Of a DNA stretch of 64,000 nt, positions 37,988 through 62,106 are shown piece after piece. Source of the DNA: a virus; IMG/VR virus record IMGVR_UViG_3300047089_000244, positions 64,001 through 128,000 of that record. One strand, written 5' to 3'. The notes beneath the pieces were generated by a model. That model was not told the origin of the DNA and searched no databases. It worked only from the letters and a program-made list of their open reading frames with translations. Position numbers and translations under genes: made by a program. How positions within the stretch are numbered: the first letter of the stretch is position 1; the number at the start of each line of letters is the position of its first letter.

Positions 37988-38262
37988 GCGTTGGAGTGTA
38001 GCAGACCCTCTTTCTCGCGGAGCGTCTGCCCTGCATTGGTTCCCTTCGGGGGCTCCTTACCTAGCGACCGTGTACATCGCCAAGTAACCGGGCAGACGGC
38101 GCAATATAGAATCGGCGTACCAGAAGAACGCTGTTCATTTTCGCTCATGCGGCAGTTCGAGCAACCCAGGAATGCTGCCCCTAAGGGGACTACGAACTCT
38201 CCCTTAGCTTTCTTGTCGGCTTGATACTTACGTATTTCTAATTCACGGAGATTAGCACTCAT
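37981..38262 (-). CDS. small Cys-rich protein
   Basis: CSNC...CAVC..C; overlaps both neighbouring ORFs. Confidence 0.5.
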   Translation of the reverse strand: MSANLRELEIRKYQADKKAKGEFVVPLGAAFLGCSNCRMSENEQRSSGTPILYCAVCPVTWRCTRSLGKEPPKGTNAGQTLREKEGLLHSNAW

Positions 38263-41200
38263 GACTGAACCAATTCTAGGTCTTCTCGTTCCTTGCGCTT
38301 CTTACGAATCTCTTGTGGTGGCTTAGGCATAGCTATATCGCCACCCTCTAGATCGTCTTCGTGTTCGTCTTCGTCGGTAGCCCCTTCTGCTCGTGGCAAC
38401 CCACCCCAACTCTCGCTACTTGCGCCAGGGCTCTGCATATGCCAAACATGTTCTCGTTGCTGAAGACAACCAGGACAATCGCATGCTACACTGTAAGCAT
38501 GATCAACCCCAATGCCCTTCTGCTGGTCGCCTTCACCACGGTCGTAGGCGCTCTCCTTGGTTCCGTTCTTATCGGCGCTGCGGTAGGCCTCGCTATCGTG
38601 CTGATTGCCACCATCGTTAACTGAGCCCTCAGCTTTCATATAGTTGCGAGGTTGATCCTGCGGATAGCCGACCGGGTGACCTTCAGGGATTGACCATGAG
38701 TGATCACTGTTCTCCTCAGTGGGGTTGAGTCCATGTACAGGGCAGTCAAGCTTGTGCCCCTGATCACATGTACATCCCTCTTTCTCTGGATGAGGATTGC
38801 CTTGTGCTGGCTCTTGCATCGTGGTAGGGGGCATCATACGCGCGTCTGGATACTCGCGTGTATCCGATTGGTCTGCTCCGAAGTGCCAATCGGTATGTTC
38901 ACCTGATCGAAGACTCGGTACGGTCTGAAAGATGTGGTTAATGATGTCAGCCGGGACAGGGTGAGCCTTAGTATCGAGTCCACCGCGTGGTCGGATATTG
39001 AAGAAGTGCGCGCTTCCTTCGCCTAGCTGATATGGAGCATGGCTATCCATGTACTCCGCATGGTGCGGGGAACCTTGTACATTGACTGCCCATGTATGCA
39101 CGTCACCACTAGGCGTCACAAGGCCCTTGCCTGGGATACCCGAGCCTGGTAACCAAGCAAGTTGATGGCTGGCTTCCCTGAACGAGCGATACCCATCGTC
39201 TGCCATTTTCCCGTCAGGGCCGTCGCCCCATGTATGCTCGTCCCATTTGCCATAGCCATTAGGGGTAGCTTCCAAGTTATCCTCGAAGTCCTGCCAAGGC
39301 ATGGCGAACTCAGGAACAGAAGATGTAGGTATCACGCGCGGCTCTCCATCGATTCCCTCACCAACCGGCTTGCCTCGAAAGCCAACCACCCACCGATCTT
39401 GTGGGTCCCAACTCATATGACTCATGTATTCAGAGAGGTGATGGGGATTCCAGAACGATGAATACCCCGGCTTGCGATACTTCTCGCGCATAGTGTCAGA
39501 TATTCCATTGTCCTCGATCGGCACCGTCTCTGCGTGCTCGGTTCCCCACCAAGGCGCATCTGGATGATGCGCACGATAGTAGAGGCCGTTCTCCATCGGC
39601 AACGCCGTTAGCTGTTCGCCAGCTACTCTAGCGTACGCTGTCTGCCAGCTTTTGCTGCTCTCAGTAGGATCGGGTGAGTAACCATGAGCTTTGGCAAATT
39701 CGCGTAACTTGATAGAGCTTGGTTCCGTAATAGAAGCGTTGCCGTGACCAAGCGCGTTATTGATCGCCTGGTCGCCGGGATGTCCACTCAAAAAGAATGA
39801 GGCATGAGGATAGCCCGTAGGATCGCGCAAGCTCATCCATTGGTGATAGGGATACTGGCCTCCAAAGTTATCAATGGAGAAATCATCTAGAGTCTTATAA
39901 GGCTCGTTGGTGTACTCTGTTTCTCCATCGATTTCTCGTCCGGTCCCGCGAAGTCCTTTAGCCCAACAATTATGCATAAGCTGACCCTCCCGCTGACGAT
40001 CCTCTGGGGTCACGAGCTTATGAATTCGCCATTGATCAGGAAATTCATGAACCACTTGCGAAGTATCGGGACCCACTTGCTCAAGAGCCCGAGCCCGTTG
40101 AGGTTGAGTTAGCCCCCCTATGTGCTCGGGGAGATTCACAACTTCCTTCTCGATCTCCGACGGCTCATGCACCTTGAACTCACGAGCCCAGTCTTCCTCT
40201 AGATCGTCAGGCGCTCGATCGGTAGTCACATCCGTGTGCTTCTCAAGAAGCTCCTTCATGATGCCTATGCCTTTGGCATTATGGGAGTGGATGTTCACAC
40301 TCTTGGGCATATGCTTGCGGTGCTCATGCAACCAAATTACAAAGTCGCCGCCGCTCAGCGCATCTGGATTAATGACGACTTTACCCTCGTATTTGACTAT
40401 ACCCAAGTCATGATCAAGCGACATATGAGCGTAGTCATTATCCTTGGCGAGCTTTTTTGCTTCGCTTGCATCTTTGGCCCAATCCCAAGACTCATCAGGG
40501 GGATGTCGCGTATCGTCTAGCCAGAGTTTGTGCCTCGTAAAGGCTAGCCTAGACTGAAAATCCCAGTATTGCTCCTTGCCCTTGAATCCCACGTCCTTGA
40601 TACGAGGATCAGCCTGTTCTACGATATGGCGATAATCACGCGGGTCGTTTTCGCCATACTGATCTGGGCGTGGCTTATAGAATTTGACGCGACCTGCCTG
40701 AGAGATGTTGAAACATGTGTCCCAGAACGTCGTTGGCTGTCCTTCCCACTCGCCACCGTGGGGATCGTAGTCGCCGCCCTCATTAACCATACCTTTGGGA
40801 TGATTGAGCCCAAAGACCTTTTCAGCGTACTGAACATGGCTTGGTCTTCCGTCCTGACCGCTCGTAGGCCACGTATGTACATTGCCCTGAGGATCAAGCA
40901 TACCCTTGCCAGGGGTACCCGGCTCCCAGTTGAGTTGATTACCTTGATTATCAGAGACCTTTGTCTCTGCCCGCATCCAGGTGCGTGGAGCATCTGTGTG
41001 ATAGTCATAGCCCACGGGGCTAGATGGATCTGGGAAATCCAGAGAGTCATCATAAGTTGGTAGCGTCGGATGCAGACCGTGACATGGGCAATCCAACTTA
41101 TGGCCATCTTTGCATGTGCAATCCACATCAACGGGCTCACCATTTCGCTCTCGTAAAGCATTTGGCCATTGATCCTTTGGGTTCCAGCTATCAGCCACCT

Positions 41201-42431
41201 TAGCCGTAGGTTGCCCTATTTTCCACTCAGGGAGAATTTCTTTCTCTTGCCTCTCCCGCCAATATGATCCTGGCTCCTTTAACTCATTCTCAGCATTTTG
41301 AGTATGCTCATATGGTTCATGCAAAGTCAAAGCCTCGGGTAGAATAGAGTGAAGAGCCACTGTCATTCCTGTATCAGGGAAAATAGGATCGTCAATCGCT
41401 TCGTCAATATATGAAGGATCAACCTTCCAAAGATCTCCACGTATATCGACTCCTCCCCCTGCATCCTCAGGATGAGGGGCTAAGTAGACACCTTCAGGTT
41501 GATGTGCCACACTTCCAGCCTCCTCATTGTCGGCCTCTCCCCATGCCGGATTTAAACGGGGATGTGAAACTTGTAATCCGTGCTGCATAATGCGAGCACG
41601 ATCCTCTGTGGGAGCCATATGATAATATGACTCATCTTCGTCATTCCAGTCAGCAATGAAGTGAAGCAACTGAGACTCATATGATGGACGCACTCGTGCT
41701 ATCCTCCATGTATGAGCTCTTTTTTGATGGTCTTTCTTGTCACCCTTTACATGTTCTTGCTCTGTACCATCATCTATATCCTCTCGCGGTGGTGACACTG
41801 AGCTTATCTCTGTCTCGAAGGTAAGCTTAGGTGGCTTGAGCCCTTTTGGTAGCGAGCCATATGCAATCGTCATGTGCGGCTTGAAATCATCATGAGAATA
41901 GGGGCTGATCTCAATACCGTGATCTTCAGCGCGGTCAGCTAATTGATCGTGATGCTCCCGAATCGTATCACTATCACAAGTCAAAACTATAGCATCTTGA
42001 CCCTCTCCCTTCTCTTTAGATGGGAATGCCTTAATATCCTTGATCGTGACCGCATGTTGGTCTTCTGGCCAACCCTGCTCTTTCTCCGAGAAAACATCAC
42101 TTGTCTCAGGAGCATAAAGCATCGTGATGTGATATTCCTCAATTGGCTCAAGCTCTGTGCCCTCCGGCCAATCCTGTTCTTCAGCCCAATTATGGATCTC
42201 AATGCCGATAGGCTTAGGGATACCAAGCCCTATGTGTAACTCATCCCTCTTAGCGGTCTTGATCGAATCATTGTTAGGCGTAAGTTTTTTGATACGCCAT
42301 TCTTCGAGGCGCTCATCTTGAATGGCTTTAACGCGCTGCTCTTGTGGATTGAGAGTGTACGCACGCTCAGATGGTGTCATCTCGATTTCACTCTTATCCC
42401 ATGCACTTGCCTTGGAGGCTTGAGTCAACAT
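38259..42431 (-). CDS. 1390-aa multi-effector protein: 2H phosphoesterase (Acb1-like), ART-like x2, CxC-CPxH Zn module x2, WxPG-GKG-HTW repeat x2, cREC, PcfJ-like
   Basis: HITMLY/PHMTIAY; YYHMA..IMQHGL..GVYLA; CTC..GHKLDCP.HG x2; KLWLDD.R..SLDHDLG..IHSHN; REG..MHNCW..SLRD..PHASF; YYRAH..GYSSF..GE. Confidence 0.8.
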   Translation of the reverse strand: MLTQASKASAWDKSEIEMTPSERAYTLNPQEQRVKAIQDERLEEWRIKKLTPNNDSIKTAKRDELHIGLGIPKPIGIEIHNWAEEQDWPEGTELEPIEEYHITMLYAPETSDVFSEKEQGWPEDQHAVTIKDIKAFPSKEKGEGQDAIVLTCDSDTIREHHDQLADRAEDHGIEISPYSHDDFKPHMTIAYGSLPKGLKPPKLTFETEISSVSPPREDIDDGTEQEHVKGDKKDHQKRAHTWRIARVRPSYESQLLHFIADWNDEDESYYHMAPTEDRARIMQHGLQVSHPRLNPAWGEADNEEAGSVAHQPEGVYLAPHPEDAGGGVDIRGDLWKVDPSYIDEAIDDPIFPDTGMTVALHSILPEALTLHEPYEHTQNAENELKEPGSYWRERQEKEILPEWKIGQPTAKVADSWNPKDQWPNALRERNGEPVDVDCTCKDGHKLDCPCHGLHPTLPTYDDSLDFPDPSSPVGYDYHTDAPRTWMRAETKVSDNQGNQLNWEPGTPGKGMLDPQGNVHTWPTSGQDGRPSHVQYAEKVFGLNHPKGMVNEGGDYDPHGGEWEGQPTTFWDTCFNISQAGRVKFYKPRPDQYGENDPRDYRHIVEQADPRIKDVGFKGKEQYWDFQSRLAFTRHKLWLDDTRHPPDESWDWAKDASEAKKLAKDNDYAHMSLDHDLGIVKYEGKVVINPDALSGGDFVIWLHEHRKHMPKSVNIHSHNAKGIGIMKELLEKHTDVTTDRAPDDLEEDWAREFKVHEPSEIEKEVVNLPEHIGGLTQPQRARALEQVGPDTSQVVHEFPDQWRIHKLVTPEDRQREGQLMHNCWAKGLRGTGREIDGETEYTNEPYKTLDDFSIDNFGGQYPYHQWMSLRDPTGYPHASFFLSGHPGDQAINNALGHGNASITEPSSIKLREFAKAHGYSPDPTESSKSWQTAYARVAGEQLTALPMENGLYYRAHHPDAPWWGTEHAETVPIEDNGISDTMREKYRKPGYSSFWNPHHLSEYMSHMSWDPQDRWVVGFRGKPVGEGIDGEPRVIPTSSVPEFAMPWQDFEDNLEATPNGYGKWDEHTWGDGPDGKMADDGYRSFREASHQLAWLPGSGIPGKGLVTPSGDVHTWAVNVQGSPHHAEYMDSHAPYQLGEGSAHFFNIRPRGGLDTKAHPVPADIINHIFQTVPSLRSGEHTDWHFGADQSDTREYPDARMMPPTTMQEPAQGNPHPEKEGCTCDQGHKLDCPVHGLNPTEENSDHSWSIPEGHPVGYPQDQPRNYMKAEGSVNDGGNQHDSEAYRSADKNGTKESAYDRGEGDQQKGIGVDHAYSVACDCPGCLQQREHVWHMQSPGASSESWGGLPRAEGATDEDEHEDDLEGGDIAMPKPPQEIRKKRKEREDLELVQS
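38499..38624 (+). CDS. 41-aa hydrophobic peptide, antisense within the 1390-aa gene
   Basis: MINPNALLLVAFTTVVGALLGSVLIGAAVGLAIVLIATIVN, with its own TGCTACACT-N6-ATG promoter. Confidence 0.55.
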   Translation: MINPNALLLVAFTTVVGALLGSVLIGAAVGLAIVLIATIVN

Positions 42432-58398: not shown

Positions 58399-61300
58399 TC
58401 ATACCTCCGGTTGTGCGTTGATATACTCTTGCGCTCGCTGGAGTAACGCGCTCTTCTCATTGAGAGTCGGGTCCGCCACCACATCGTTAGTTAGCTGTCG
58501 TAGGATTGTACCAACTTGTGGTCCCGGTTTCAAGCCGAGAGCCAAGAGGTCGTTCCCGTTGACGCTAATCGCCGACTGGGTGGTAGGCGCTCCGGACTGC
58601 CGAGACTGCTCCACGAGTTCGCGCATCGTATCAACAGGCGTCTTATAGGACGTATCGATTCCTTTGCCCTCGTTATCAGCCGCACGGAGCGTTAAGAGGT
58701 CATCTGCCGCCTCTCCCGTCTTGTTCAGGAACTTACGAGCCCCCTTAGCACTAGAGAATTGCGGGAACATGTGCTGCGAGATCAAGTTGTGAATGTTGCG
58801 AATTTTGGTGACCGGATAGTTAAAGGTCTGGCGTAGGCGAGCCTCAGTCATATCCGCTCCGACTTTGGCGTGGTCGGCTCCCACTGGGACCCCTTCCAGC
58901 ATGCCCGCGTAGTAGTGTGTCACGCCCGTCGCTGGGTCTATCCATGCAGAAGCGGGCTTGCCCGTATCATGCAAGAGAGCAGCTAGGCGCAGGTCTGGAT
59001 CTTTGGAAGCGCGCGAGACATTATCGAACACATTTAGGCTATGCTCACCTAGTGAATAATTATGGTGAGGGTTTTTCTGATCATAGTCGAAGTTATTCGC
59101 TAGCTCAGGGAAGAGATGTTTGAGTACGCCTGTTTCCTGAGCCAAGCGGAATGCGCCCGCTGGATTAGCGCTCGTCAGAAGCTTCTCAAGCTGTTGCTTT
59201 AGCGCATCAGGTGACTCCTGATCCAGACGGTGAGCGTACTCTTCCATCTCCTTACGCGTCTGCTCGTCCGGAACCAGTCCGTGGCGGGAGTGCATCGTGA
59301 GGGCTCGGACCAAACGTGTTGGGTCCTCATCGAATGATCCTGGGTGAGTAGTCCGTAAAGTATGGGACTCAATGTCTCTAGCTCCTCCGTAGGGATCAAG
59401 CAATCGCCCCGACGAGTCAAGATCAACGGCCATAGAATTGGCCGTAAAGTCTCGTCGCTGTAAGTCTTTCTCGATTGGGAGATGATGATCGACTGTGATT
59501 TTTCCTTGTCCACGGGTTCCTCCTGATTCGTATGTGTCGGTGCGAGGAAGTGCGATCTCGACCTCTTGGCCTTTGGTATGATAGCGGTAGACGCCAAAGC
59601 GCTTACCCGTAAGATCCACGCGGCCCGGTAGATGCTCCAAGATGTTATTCACGTCCTCGGGCGGAATACCCGATACCATAAGATCAATGTCCTTAGGCTC
59701 CTTCTGAAGGAGAGCATCTCGCACGGCTCCACCAACGACATAGACCTTACCGCCAGCTTCTTTAAGAGCTTGTGAGGCCGTCCAAGCAGCACCATCAGCA
59801 GCCGTAATCGAACGGATGTATGTGCCTACGTCCGCCGAAGCAACCTTGTGCTTTTCTCCTGTCTGGCTTTCCATTTCGAGGCTCGTGATCTCTAGTCCTG
59901 GGTGACTATAGTACCACAACTGCATCATGTGATATGTGGAGAACGGGATAGTAGTCGTCGTATTGATGACCATCTTACCCTTTGGTTCGTAGTATCCCTC
60001 CACGATGCCACCTGGTGTAAACTGCCCCATGATGTCTGGAGTACGCATACCGGGGTGGCCTACCGTGATATAGTCCTTTTCGATGTCGTAGATGAAGGGG
60101 ATTGGAGCCTGAAGCAAGTCCTTTCCTTCTTTGCCGCCTGCGGCCTCGAAGTGCCACCCCGCTTCGTTCCTCCATCCAGGACCAATCGGTTGTAGGTGTT
60201 CTGGAAGTTGAGAAGTTCCGTCTCTCTGTGCCTGCACGAACTCCTTAACCCGGTTCAAGTGAGATACGTCCTCAGGAAGATCATCCTCTGTGATGTATTG
60301 GCCCCCGTGTGCGCCTATTTCTGTAGCGTGCTTGCCACGAGGGTCATAGGAGAACGAAGCATGTGGCCAATTGTTGGGATCTCTCAAAGAGAGATTCATG
60401 TCCGCCCCCATTACATGCTGACTAGAAGGATCGTAAACCATATCGTTTTGATCCTCTGATGTGCCCATACCTCCCCAGCAATGGTGCATCATGTCCCCCT
60501 CTCTACCAACCTCATTCCAGCTAGGCAAATGTCGAATAGTCCACCCATCAGGAAATTGATGAAGAATCTCCGTCTGCTCTGGTCCATGTACCTCTTCGAG
60601 TTTTGTCTTAAACCGTTGTTGTTGAGGAACGGTCATTCGTCCGAAGTGCCATTTGTCTGATGAAACAAAAGCCCCCATCACAGGAATAGCCGTAGGTGTG
60701 ACGTTGCGCGGTCGCAGTGGCAATGGCTCGTCTTTGTCTTCGATGGTCGGGAAGTGTCCGTCATCGATCGGCGCAGCTTTGGGGTCCTGGTGATCCTGCG
60801 TATGCATAACGTAGGCTTTGAAATCTGGTAGCGTCTCGTTGCAATATGGGCAGGTGAGTTGACCTTGGGGCTCGCCATCAAAAGCTTTGCCCGGTTCTGC
60901 TTCTGGATCGCCCTTGTCGTATGTGGTCGGCCACTCCTTGTTCTTGATACGATCGTTCATGTCCGTGCCACCTGGGTACTCTGCAATGCGATACCCAAAG
61001 TCATCTGCCCATTCGATTAGTCCCGGCAGAGCAAACGGATTTGGAGGACGGTTGAAACTAGCTGTACGACCTACTATCTCGATCTCATCGTGATTACCCC
61101 AGAACGGGCGACTGCTGAGCTTAAGCTTACCCTCGCGCCATCCATACCAGTATGACTTCTTGGCTCCAAAATCATCATGAATTGGTTGACCACTGCTATC
61201 TACCAAGCCACCCCACTTCCATCCAACTTGCTTGCTGTAATCCTTCATCATTTTTACTAGCCCGCGCAAGCCGATGTTGCTCTCGACACTCCAGAGAGCA

Positions 61301-62106
61301 TCACGTCCGCGCACATTGACATACCCAACGGCCATCGGGCCGTTATGATCGGGAGCGATCTGAGCCTCTTCTGCCATCTGTTCGTGGTCGTCTACGGGTG
61401 AGACTTTGAACTCGCCGTTGCCGAAGATGAACTTATACTCATGCTCAACAGGTTCCTCCATCGAGAGATTGAGGTCGTCTATCACCGGGTCGTGGAAATC
61501 GCGTTGATTGAATTCCTCTTCTGCCTGCGGGCCTTCGCCAGGATACGCGTCGGAACCCGATCCACCGGAGTCGGCTTGCTTCAGAATCTTACCCTCTAGA
61601 GCGGCATTAGCACGTTCGGCAAATAACTGTGATCGCTGAGTGATGTTTGGCGACTGTTCTAGGTCTTCCCAGTCACGTTTGTCCTGTCCTGGTTGAGGAT
61701 CACTCTGAATGCGGAAGTCGCGATAGAGAGGATTGGTTGCATGCGTGTAGACAATTGGGCCTGGCCTATGGCGCATCTGTTCAGGCTCATACTCATAGGG
61801 CTCATCCTCCGCGTCTTGTGGGCGCGGCGTACCTTTGACAGGAGTGAAAGCATACTGGTCGCCTGTGAGATCCACGACGTAATTCCTATCTGGGCTCACC
61901 CAGAAGAAGTGACCTTCCTTCTGGCCAATATGTCCGCCGCCGAGCTTGCTCTGAAGCCACTTAGATGTAACGTAACAATGTCCAGCGCTCGGCTGTGGAT
62001 GACCGCGAGAGTCCTCGGGGCGTGTCTCATCTGACCATGCGTGTTCTGCTGCGCGGCGTAGCTCGTGCAGTTTCTCTTGTGTGATCGTGTCTGGATCAAA
62101 TCCCAT
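58399..62106 (-). CDS. 1235-aa modular protein: papain/YunG-like domain, C2H2 finger, PcfJ-like domain, C-terminal CCA-adding tRNA nucleotidyltransferase with HD domain
   Basis: GHCYVTS..HFFW..VDLT.DQY; CPYC..H..H; REGDMMHHCW..SLRD; VYVVGGAVRD.LL...PKDID, DLQRRDFT.N, EDP.R..RA, HH..GEHS, LLHDTGK. Confidence 0.85.
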   Translation of the reverse strand: MGFDPDTITQEKLHELRRAAEHAWSDETRPEDSRGHPQPSAGHCYVTSKWLQSKLGGGHIGQKEGHFFWVSPDRNYVVDLTGDQYAFTPVKGTPRPQDAEDEPYEYEPEQMRHRPGPIVYTHATNPLYRDFRIQSDPQPGQDKRDWEDLEQSPNITQRSQLFAERANAALEGKILKQADSGGSGSDAYPGEGPQAEEEFNQRDFHDPVIDDLNLSMEEPVEHEYKFIFGNGEFKVSPVDDHEQMAEEAQIAPDHNGPMAVGYVNVRGRDALWSVESNIGLRGLVKMMKDYSKQVGWKWGGLVDSSGQPIHDDFGAKKSYWYGWREGKLKLSSRPFWGNHDEIEIVGRTASFNRPPNPFALPGLIEWADDFGYRIAEYPGGTDMNDRIKNKEWPTTYDKGDPEAEPGKAFDGEPQGQLTCPYCNETLPDFKAYVMHTQDHQDPKAAPIDDGHFPTIEDKDEPLPLRPRNVTPTAIPVMGAFVSSDKWHFGRMTVPQQQRFKTKLEEVHGPEQTEILHQFPDGWTIRHLPSWNEVGREGDMMHHCWGGMGTSEDQNDMVYDPSSQHVMGADMNLSLRDPNNWPHASFSYDPRGKHATEIGAHGGQYITEDDLPEDVSHLNRVKEFVQAQRDGTSQLPEHLQPIGPGWRNEAGWHFEAAGGKEGKDLLQAPIPFIYDIEKDYITVGHPGMRTPDIMGQFTPGGIVEGYYEPKGKMVINTTTTIPFSTYHMMQLWYYSHPGLEITSLEMESQTGEKHKVASADVGTYIRSITAADGAAWTASQALKEAGGKVYVVGGAVRDALLQKEPKDIDLMVSGIPPEDVNNILEHLPGRVDLTGKRFGVYRYHTKGQEVEIALPRTDTYESGGTRGQGKITVDHHLPIEKDLQRRDFTANSMAVDLDSSGRLLDPYGGARDIESHTLRTTHPGSFDEDPTRLVRALTMHSRHGLVPDEQTRKEMEEYAHRLDQESPDALKQQLEKLLTSANPAGAFRLAQETGVLKHLFPELANNFDYDQKNPHHNYSLGEHSLNVFDNVSRASKDPDLRLAALLHDTGKPASAWIDPATGVTHYYAGMLEGVPVGADHAKVGADMTEARLRQTFNYPVTKIRNIHNLISQHMFPQFSSAKGARKFLNKTGEAADDLLTLRAADNEGKGIDTSYKTPVDTMRELVEQSRQSGAPTTQSAISVNGNDLLALGLKPGPQVGTILRQLTNDVVADPTLNEKSALLQRAQEYINAQPEV

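Follow-up and report, generated by a model that had tools for sequence, protein, structure and literature searches.

Judging from its conserved motifs, the last 479 residues of a 1235-amino-acid (aa) protein encoded in the IMG/VR virus record IMGVR_UViG_3300047089_000244 make up a class II CCA-adding enzyme that looks active and includes an HD domain. The 756 residues before them constitute a scaffold specific to the clade, whose parts are a YunG-like domain, some small domains of alpha/beta type, a zinc knuckle, a cassette slot, and a last domain designated M4. The DNA analyzed here (the window) is a stretch of 64,000 nucleotides (nt), corresponding to bases 64001-128000 of this record, which is 169,966 bp long and rated complete. 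The gene is located at window positions 58399-62106 on the minus strand and, in an open reading frame (ORF) analysis, is a single uninterrupted frame from ATG to stop (1235 aa plus the stop codon). The fusion of scaffold and enzyme is real, and it is the usual state in the phage clade to which this genome belongs.

The fused CCA-adding enzyme and its relatives

The enzyme module occupies residues 757-1235. Its first part, residues 757-1010 (59077..59838, minus strand), contains the nucleotidyltransferase head, the neck, and the RNA-binding part with motifs A-D (PF01743, PF12627), and its second part, residues 1011-1235 (58402..59076, minus strand), contains the HD phosphohydrolase domain (PF01966) and the C-terminal tRNA_NucTran2_2 domain (PF13735). 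In all the libraries searched (Pfam, PHROGs, NCBIfam, and PDB), residues 777-1215 match CCA-adding enzymes. The Pfam head domain PF01743 is found at 1.7e-25 (90 bits, against a cut-off of 23), the HD domain PF01966 at 30.5 bits (cut-off 22), and phrog_2244 of PHROGs at 1e-61. The best NCBIfam model is the actinobacterial CCA enzyme TIGR02692 (3e-57), and the PcnB model scores lower (1e-36). The best PDB match, and thus the closest solved structure, is the T. maritima CCA-adding enzyme (3H37, 2e-30).

The residues expected of such an enzyme are present. Motif A comprises GGAVRD and DIDL, whose glycine, arginine, and two aspartates are invariant or at least 95% conserved, and motifs B, C, and D (RRDFTAN, DPYGGARD, and EDPTRLVRA) are likewise conserved among the homologues. 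The metal-binding residues of the HD domain (His1014, His1021, His1045-Asp1046, and a later His and Asp) are also present and conserved. An alignment of 153 homologous modules shows at least 95% conservation for motifs A-D and for the HD residues. Between motifs A and B, the loop is similar in length to its counterpart in the Bacillus enzyme. The original prediction had described an intact class II nucleotidyltransferase plus HD domain, and every motif it named was found. A profile search of the genome gave a single PF01743 match, so there is no second CCA enzyme gene.

The same prediction had placed the start of the enzyme right after a KHKVASA junction near 59830; this heptapeptide is located at 59833-59853 (residues 752-758). 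In an AlphaFold2 (AF2) model, it contains the last beta-strand of M4, and only three to five residues separate this strand from the first helix of the CCA module. How common is this arrangement? When the search was limited to proteins 679-2162 residues long, it gave 301 relatives, nearly all with CCA domains. The combined set comprised 260 relatives, and M4 was found in 207 of them. The CCA module directly follows M4 in 143 of these proteins and follows an inserted module in a further 20; 33 end a few residues past the K-[LV]-A motif, and the other 11 continue with different modules and have no CCA domain. In every CCA-bearing relative of the combined set (163 of 163), M4 lies upstream of the CCA module. 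The search for other phages with this fusion, which had been proposed as a check, yielded 163 examples. Full-length, colinear relatives of the whole ORF (P0001) include P0002 and P0003, at 78% identity.

An error of assembly or sequencing that joined two ORFs would give the same appearance in a single genome. However, the 163 relatives with M4 followed by CCA come from metagenomic assemblies of several sources, and the same continuous frame recurs in many independent assemblies (JGI, Logan, ENA, and NCBI), including a locus that is 98% identical across M4 and has the same unbroken M4-CCA frame. On this evidence, the chance of an artefact is negligible. A small part of the stretch is present in one rhizosphere DNA sequencing run, whose single 171-nt contig ends short of the junction, and no RNA sequencing runs containing the stretch are listed.

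The fusion is also labile. Stand-alone CCA proteins of 486-497 residues, 76-83% identical to the CCA module, are encoded on contigs in which a scaffold gene ending in ...HKVA is located just upstream. What lies between the pair is an HNH gene in L055 (2898-3494), an HNH_3 gene in L057 (2788-3510), and only 38 nt in L056. In L018, the frame is split inside M4 by a gene of the endonuclease VII family (9514-9984), and Rfam detects no intron at this insertion. In several IMG/VR relatives, the scaffold gene stops at M4, and the CCA module is either absent or located at the end of a different protein of 2163 residues; in distant relatives, the module is internal, with up to ~740 residues after it. 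Since the CCA enzyme has a gene of its own in close relatives, covalent attachment is dispensable, and, judging from these gene structures, the fused state is not needed for catalysis.

These observations raise the question of whether the fusion has any function. It might be the neutral product of a hot spot in which genes are shuffled and homing endonucleases come and go, with the two halves working independently in the cytoplasm. The coexistence of fused, split, and CCA-less states among the relatives would fit such a history, as would the three different endonuclease genes in or beside M4 (HNH, HNH_3, and endonuclease VII family) and the relatives in which the CCA module is internal or ends a different giant protein. 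On the other hand, the fused state is kept in 163 of the 207 retrieved M4 proteins across 40-90% identity. In addition, the very short linker and the constant presence of M4 as the upstream neighbor suggest selection for an M4-CCA unit. We regard a functionless fusion as a minor possibility, although one to be taken seriously.

tRNA genes and the proposed role of the enzyme

The phage genome has 37 tRNA genes and a transfer-messenger RNA (tmRNA) gene in one array at genome positions 145-158 kb (L010:17163-19368, L011:73-9738); the tmRNA tag ends in ...THLALA. The encoded CCA is missing after the acceptor stem and discriminator base in 36 of the 37 tRNA genes, and 24 of these 36 genes have C-T after the discriminator. 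Because 36 of 37 genes do not encode the CCA end, the phage tRNAs need a CCA-adding enzyme. A gene of the ATP-dependent RNA ligase family (PF09414, 9e-13) adjoins the tRNA array at genome positions 157198-157740 on the minus strand, outside the window; no RtcB was found. Two-thirds of M. tuberculosis tRNA genes are also without CCA and depend on the CCA enzyme (PMC10435456), and CCA enzymes are frequent in large phages that have tRNA sets (PMC7824862).

We examined 11 genomes of the clade in this respect. The seven genomes with the scaffold-CCA fusion have 28-44 tRNAs; in the three that lack a CCA enzyme altogether, the numbers are 0, 5, and 13. It should be mentioned that one of these, G003 (the record of L030; 142,928 bp, 96% complete), retains the scaffold gene and has neither tRNA genes nor a CCA enzyme.

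With moderate confidence, we propose that the enzyme serves mainly to mature and repair the 3' ends of tRNAs during infection, a reading drawn from the gene content of these genomes. The CCA enzyme would build 3' CCA ends on the phage tRNAs as they are made during infection, and it would rebuild the 3' CCA on both phage and host tRNAs when these are damaged. The scaffold may contribute localization, packaging, or regulation, all of which are candidates.

Several points weigh against this proposal. The first is the identity of the reaction: the score for the NCBIfam equivalog TIGR02692 (194 bits) is under its cut-off of 438.8, and sequence comparison does not distinguish among the addition of CCA, CC, A, or poly(A). 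The second is the comparison of genomes, in which two members do not follow the expected pattern. G004 has its CCA module on another protein and only three tRNAs, and G001, with 13 tRNAs that lack CCA, encodes no CCA enzyme within the 82% of its genome examined. The relationship between tRNA number and CCA presence is a trend only, among genomes that are related, in some cases incomplete, and not phylogenetically independent. The third concerns the host, which presumably has a CCA enzyme of its own, so that the phage copy may be accessory. Finally, a role in tRNA maturation leaves the predominance of the fused form unexplained.

Scaffold, cassettes, and genome setting

The 756 residues upstream of the enzyme were partitioned by homology and AF2 modeling. 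The first domain, M1 (residues 1-110; 61777..62106, minus strand), is a phage YunG-like domain that matches PF24585 at 28.2-32 bits against a cut-off of 27, so the YunG-like assignment of the original prediction holds. Atlas clusters that neighbor M1 carry PF24591. A profile search of M1 found no PDB relative, a PDB sequence search of residues 1-780 gave no match either, and a literature search for "YunG" returned surnames only. M1 is followed by an acidic low-complexity linker (residues 111-217; 61456..61776, minus strand), which is poorly conserved and has a predicted local distance difference test (pLDDT) score below 60 over its modeled part, 181-217. M2 (residues 218-376; 60979..61455, minus strand) consists of two tandem small alpha/beta domains, modeled with pLDDT ~90 for 221-315, the second of which ends in the strand Y-R-I-A. 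The fold matches of M2 are weak: a Z score of 5.5 in VIA, and tandem gelsolin-like repeats in Foldseek with an E-value of 1.6e-3 or worse.

Two further domains had been named from sequence inspection, and both stood in part. The C2H2 finger corresponds to a zinc knuckle (CPYC...H...H) at residues 415-440 (60787..60864, minus strand), in which the CxxC...H...H pattern spans 419-439, and Cys419, Cys422, and His435 are near-invariant in 81 relatives. AF2 models it as a beta-beta-alpha unit, but its Pfam E-values (0.013-0.05) are under the cut-offs. The PcfJ-like domain, here M3 (residues 486-653; 60148..60651, minus strand), is in itself sub-threshold for PF14284 (15.9 bits, against a cut-off of 25), and the assignment comes from its relatives, since seven of 29 aligned members of the M3 family match this model (best 2.5e-11). 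M3 is a cassette: it has W-H-F at both flanks, it has a paralogue in a neighboring 1390-aa protein, and it is found in only three of the 163 CCA fusions.

M4 (residues 660-756; 59839..60129, minus strand) is a small alpha/beta domain of unrecognized fold, modeled with pLDDT ~90, whose last strand is H-K-V-A. No convincing structural relative was found in PDB Foldseek, VIA wide, ESM Atlas, or BFVD searches. The best results were a Z score of 5.4, TM values <0.5, and small unnamed phage proteins at a probability of 0.97-0.99, together with scattered weak matches to PD-(D/E)XK nucleases. The models of M2 and M4 share the same weak top structural match, and a profile comparison of the two found no similarity apart from the short [KR]-[LIV]-A ending.

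Relatives differ in the cassettes that occupy the slot between M2 and M4, a GNAT domain among them, and residue ~376 is a point at which cassettes are inserted in relatives. The slot is bounded by W-x-F motifs: cassette-less relatives have a single such motif, and extra copies occur around mini-inserts. In the 1235-aa protein, the W-H-F copies that flank the PcfJ-like cassette (60640-60651 and 60148-60156; residues 486-488 and 651-653) are encoded by the same 10 nt. We do not claim this identity as a recombination signal, because it adds little beyond the shared peptide. The second border motif, K-[LV]-A or more generally [KR]-x-A, is conserved, forms the terminal strand of M2b and M4 in the models, and also marks natural protein ends.

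The original prediction had called the N-terminal region papain-like as well as YunG-like. What stands of the papain-like label is the conserved pattern of Cys44, His66, and Asp79, its sole basis; no peptidase match for M1 was found in PDB or Pfam. If M1 were a cysteine peptidase, the protein might be a self-processing polyprotein, in which the YunG-like Cys-His-Asp domain cuts at the W-x-F and K-[LV]-A junctions and releases the modules. Conservation of the three residues in at least 90% of relatives, and the short conserved motifs at the module borders, could be read in this way. Against it, M1 is present in only 84 of the 163 CCA fusions, there is no fold or family evidence for a peptidase, and in the models the border motifs can be explained as terminal strands of domains; since [KR]-x-A forms such strands in M2b and M4 and also marks natural protein ends, its conservation is explained without cleavage. 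We consider self-processing very unlikely.

A different explanation is that the protein is carried in the virion. The original prediction had proposed virion-delivered tRNA repair, and in its general form the scaffold would load the capsid and the protein would be injected with the DNA, whole or cleaved, so that the CCA/HD part acts in repair before phage expression. The position of the gene and the build of its protein speak in favor of delivery. The many modules of unrelated activity match the description of polyvalent proteins (PMC5512222), and the swapping of cassettes at fixed junctions suggests an arms race. The gene is located ~7 kb downstream of the portal gene, in an order kept in 24 related loci: portal, metallophosphoesterase, small genes, a 222-aa protein, a 255-aa protein, the scaffold protein, and 562-aa and 462-aa proteins. 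Neighboring genes are of the same many-module style; for example, the 1390-aa protein (window 38259-42431, minus strand) combines an Acb1/2H phosphoesterase, cREC, and the paralogue of the PcfJ-like cassette, and is a mosaic like the 1235-aa protein. The 562-aa protein has no Pfam match.

Other observations point the other way. Pfam scans of the 1235-aa protein and of the larger relatives scanned gave no MuF, portal, or other packaging hallmark, and no targeting hallmark was found. The genes between the portal gene and the 1235-aa gene are the metallophosphoesterase and small unknown genes, not head genes. The split forms would lose a covalently attached cargo, and in the model K-[LV]-A forms the final strand of M4 and is not an exposed linker. 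We therefore consider virion packaging of the enzyme rather unlikely. We are equally doubtful of the wider idea that the scaffold (the alpha/beta domains and M4) is a loading platform that carries interchangeable CCA/HD, GNAT, PcfJ-like, 2H, and other cassettes into the particle in a widespread clade of actinobacterial myophages. If it were true, an enzyme that builds tRNA ends would be injected with the DNA and would act before any phage gene is read. The reading that we prefer remains that the enzyme matures and repairs tRNA 3' ends in the infected cell.

The genome encodes a tail sheath, portal, large terminase, head protease, DNA polymerase, and tail-fibre-like proteins, and its portal is ~40% identical to the portals of cluster C mycobacteriophages and Rhodococcus phages. 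A relative classed as a provirus, ~150 kb in length, lies inside a 603-kb contig of Candidatus Solirubrobacter pratensis URHD0082 (L054, NZ_AUEK01000007.1 271167-278714), a member of the Actinomycetota, class Thermoleophilia. Because of this provirus, the host lineage of this 170-kb soil myophage is probably Actinomycetota. Integration of a ~150-kb myophage is unusual, and L054 offers a possible route to a culturable system.

Cluster C mycobacteriophages have two unexplained ~1300-aa proteins between the portal and major capsid genes (L036, Mycobacterium phage YemiJoy2021, 41202-49177). These proteins adjoin a gene annotated as RNA ligase and may occupy an analogous slot; no homology of the scaffold to them was detected in the phage collection. 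Around the 1235-aa gene, a scan for promoters and terminators found no more sites than in shuffled sequence. A small ORF of ~55 codons (window 58235-58402, minus strand) starts in an ATGA that overlaps the stop codon of the 1235-aa gene, with GGAGG just upstream; this arrangement suggests that it is translationally coupled to the larger gene.

Comparison with known systems

CCA-adding enzymes are textbook stand-alone housekeeping enzymes. In a large clade of uncultured soil phages that import a near-full set of CCA-less tRNAs, such an enzyme usually forms the end module of a mosaic protein. With this clade, one can ask how phages that bring in components of translation complete them, and whether enzymes of RNA metabolism ride on scaffolds that serve structure or delivery. 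The fused, split, and CCA-less forms that occur naturally are a ready comparison set.

Bacterial CCA-adding enzymes (E. coli Cca NF008137, TIGR02692, and 3H37) are like the phage module in motifs A-D, in the length of the A-B loop, in the HD domain, and in the C-terminal body. The phage protein differs from them in that it has a 756-residue N-terminal extension, scores under the equivalog cut-offs, and is encoded by a phage, with an activity predicted from sequence. The stand-alone tRNA nucleotidyltransferases of phages (phrog_2244; Vibrio, Escherichia, Cronobacter, and huge phages) belong to the same enzyme family and also accompany tRNA sets, but each of them consists of one enzyme only. All 386 matching phage records leave the N-terminal 750 residues uncovered; the matches in the phage collection cover the CCA part only and are annotated as plain tRNA nucleotidyltransferases, in agreement with the earlier statement that phage CCA enzymes normally stand alone.

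The split relatives call to mind another group of phage genes. The T4-type nrdA and DNA polymerase genes are split by free-standing homing endonucleases. The relatives described here are alike in that endonuclease genes at the M4/CCA border or inside M4 leave two ORFs. They differ in that the split is mostly at a domain border, so that each half may work alone.

A related theme is that of the polyvalent proteins of phages and conjugative elements, for which injection together with the phage DNA has been proposed (Iyer, Burroughs, Anand, de Souza, Aravind 2017, PMC5512222). The likeness lies in the many unrelated domains per polypeptide (GNAT in relatives, 2H in a neighbor), the mosaic build, and the virion genes nearby, and the 1235-aa protein itself combines disparate modules in one polypeptide, namely the YunG-like, zinc knuckle, PcfJ-like, nucleotidyltransferase, and HD modules. 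It differs in having no MuF or portal fusion, and its injection would be a matter of prediction. The survey of polyvalent proteins makes no mention of a CCA-adding enzyme, YunG, or PcfJ (PMC5512222), and our literature search found no published description of the scaffold-CCA architecture. What is new here is the architecture in which a known enzyme occurs; the wider theme, that of mosaic phage proteins, is already known.

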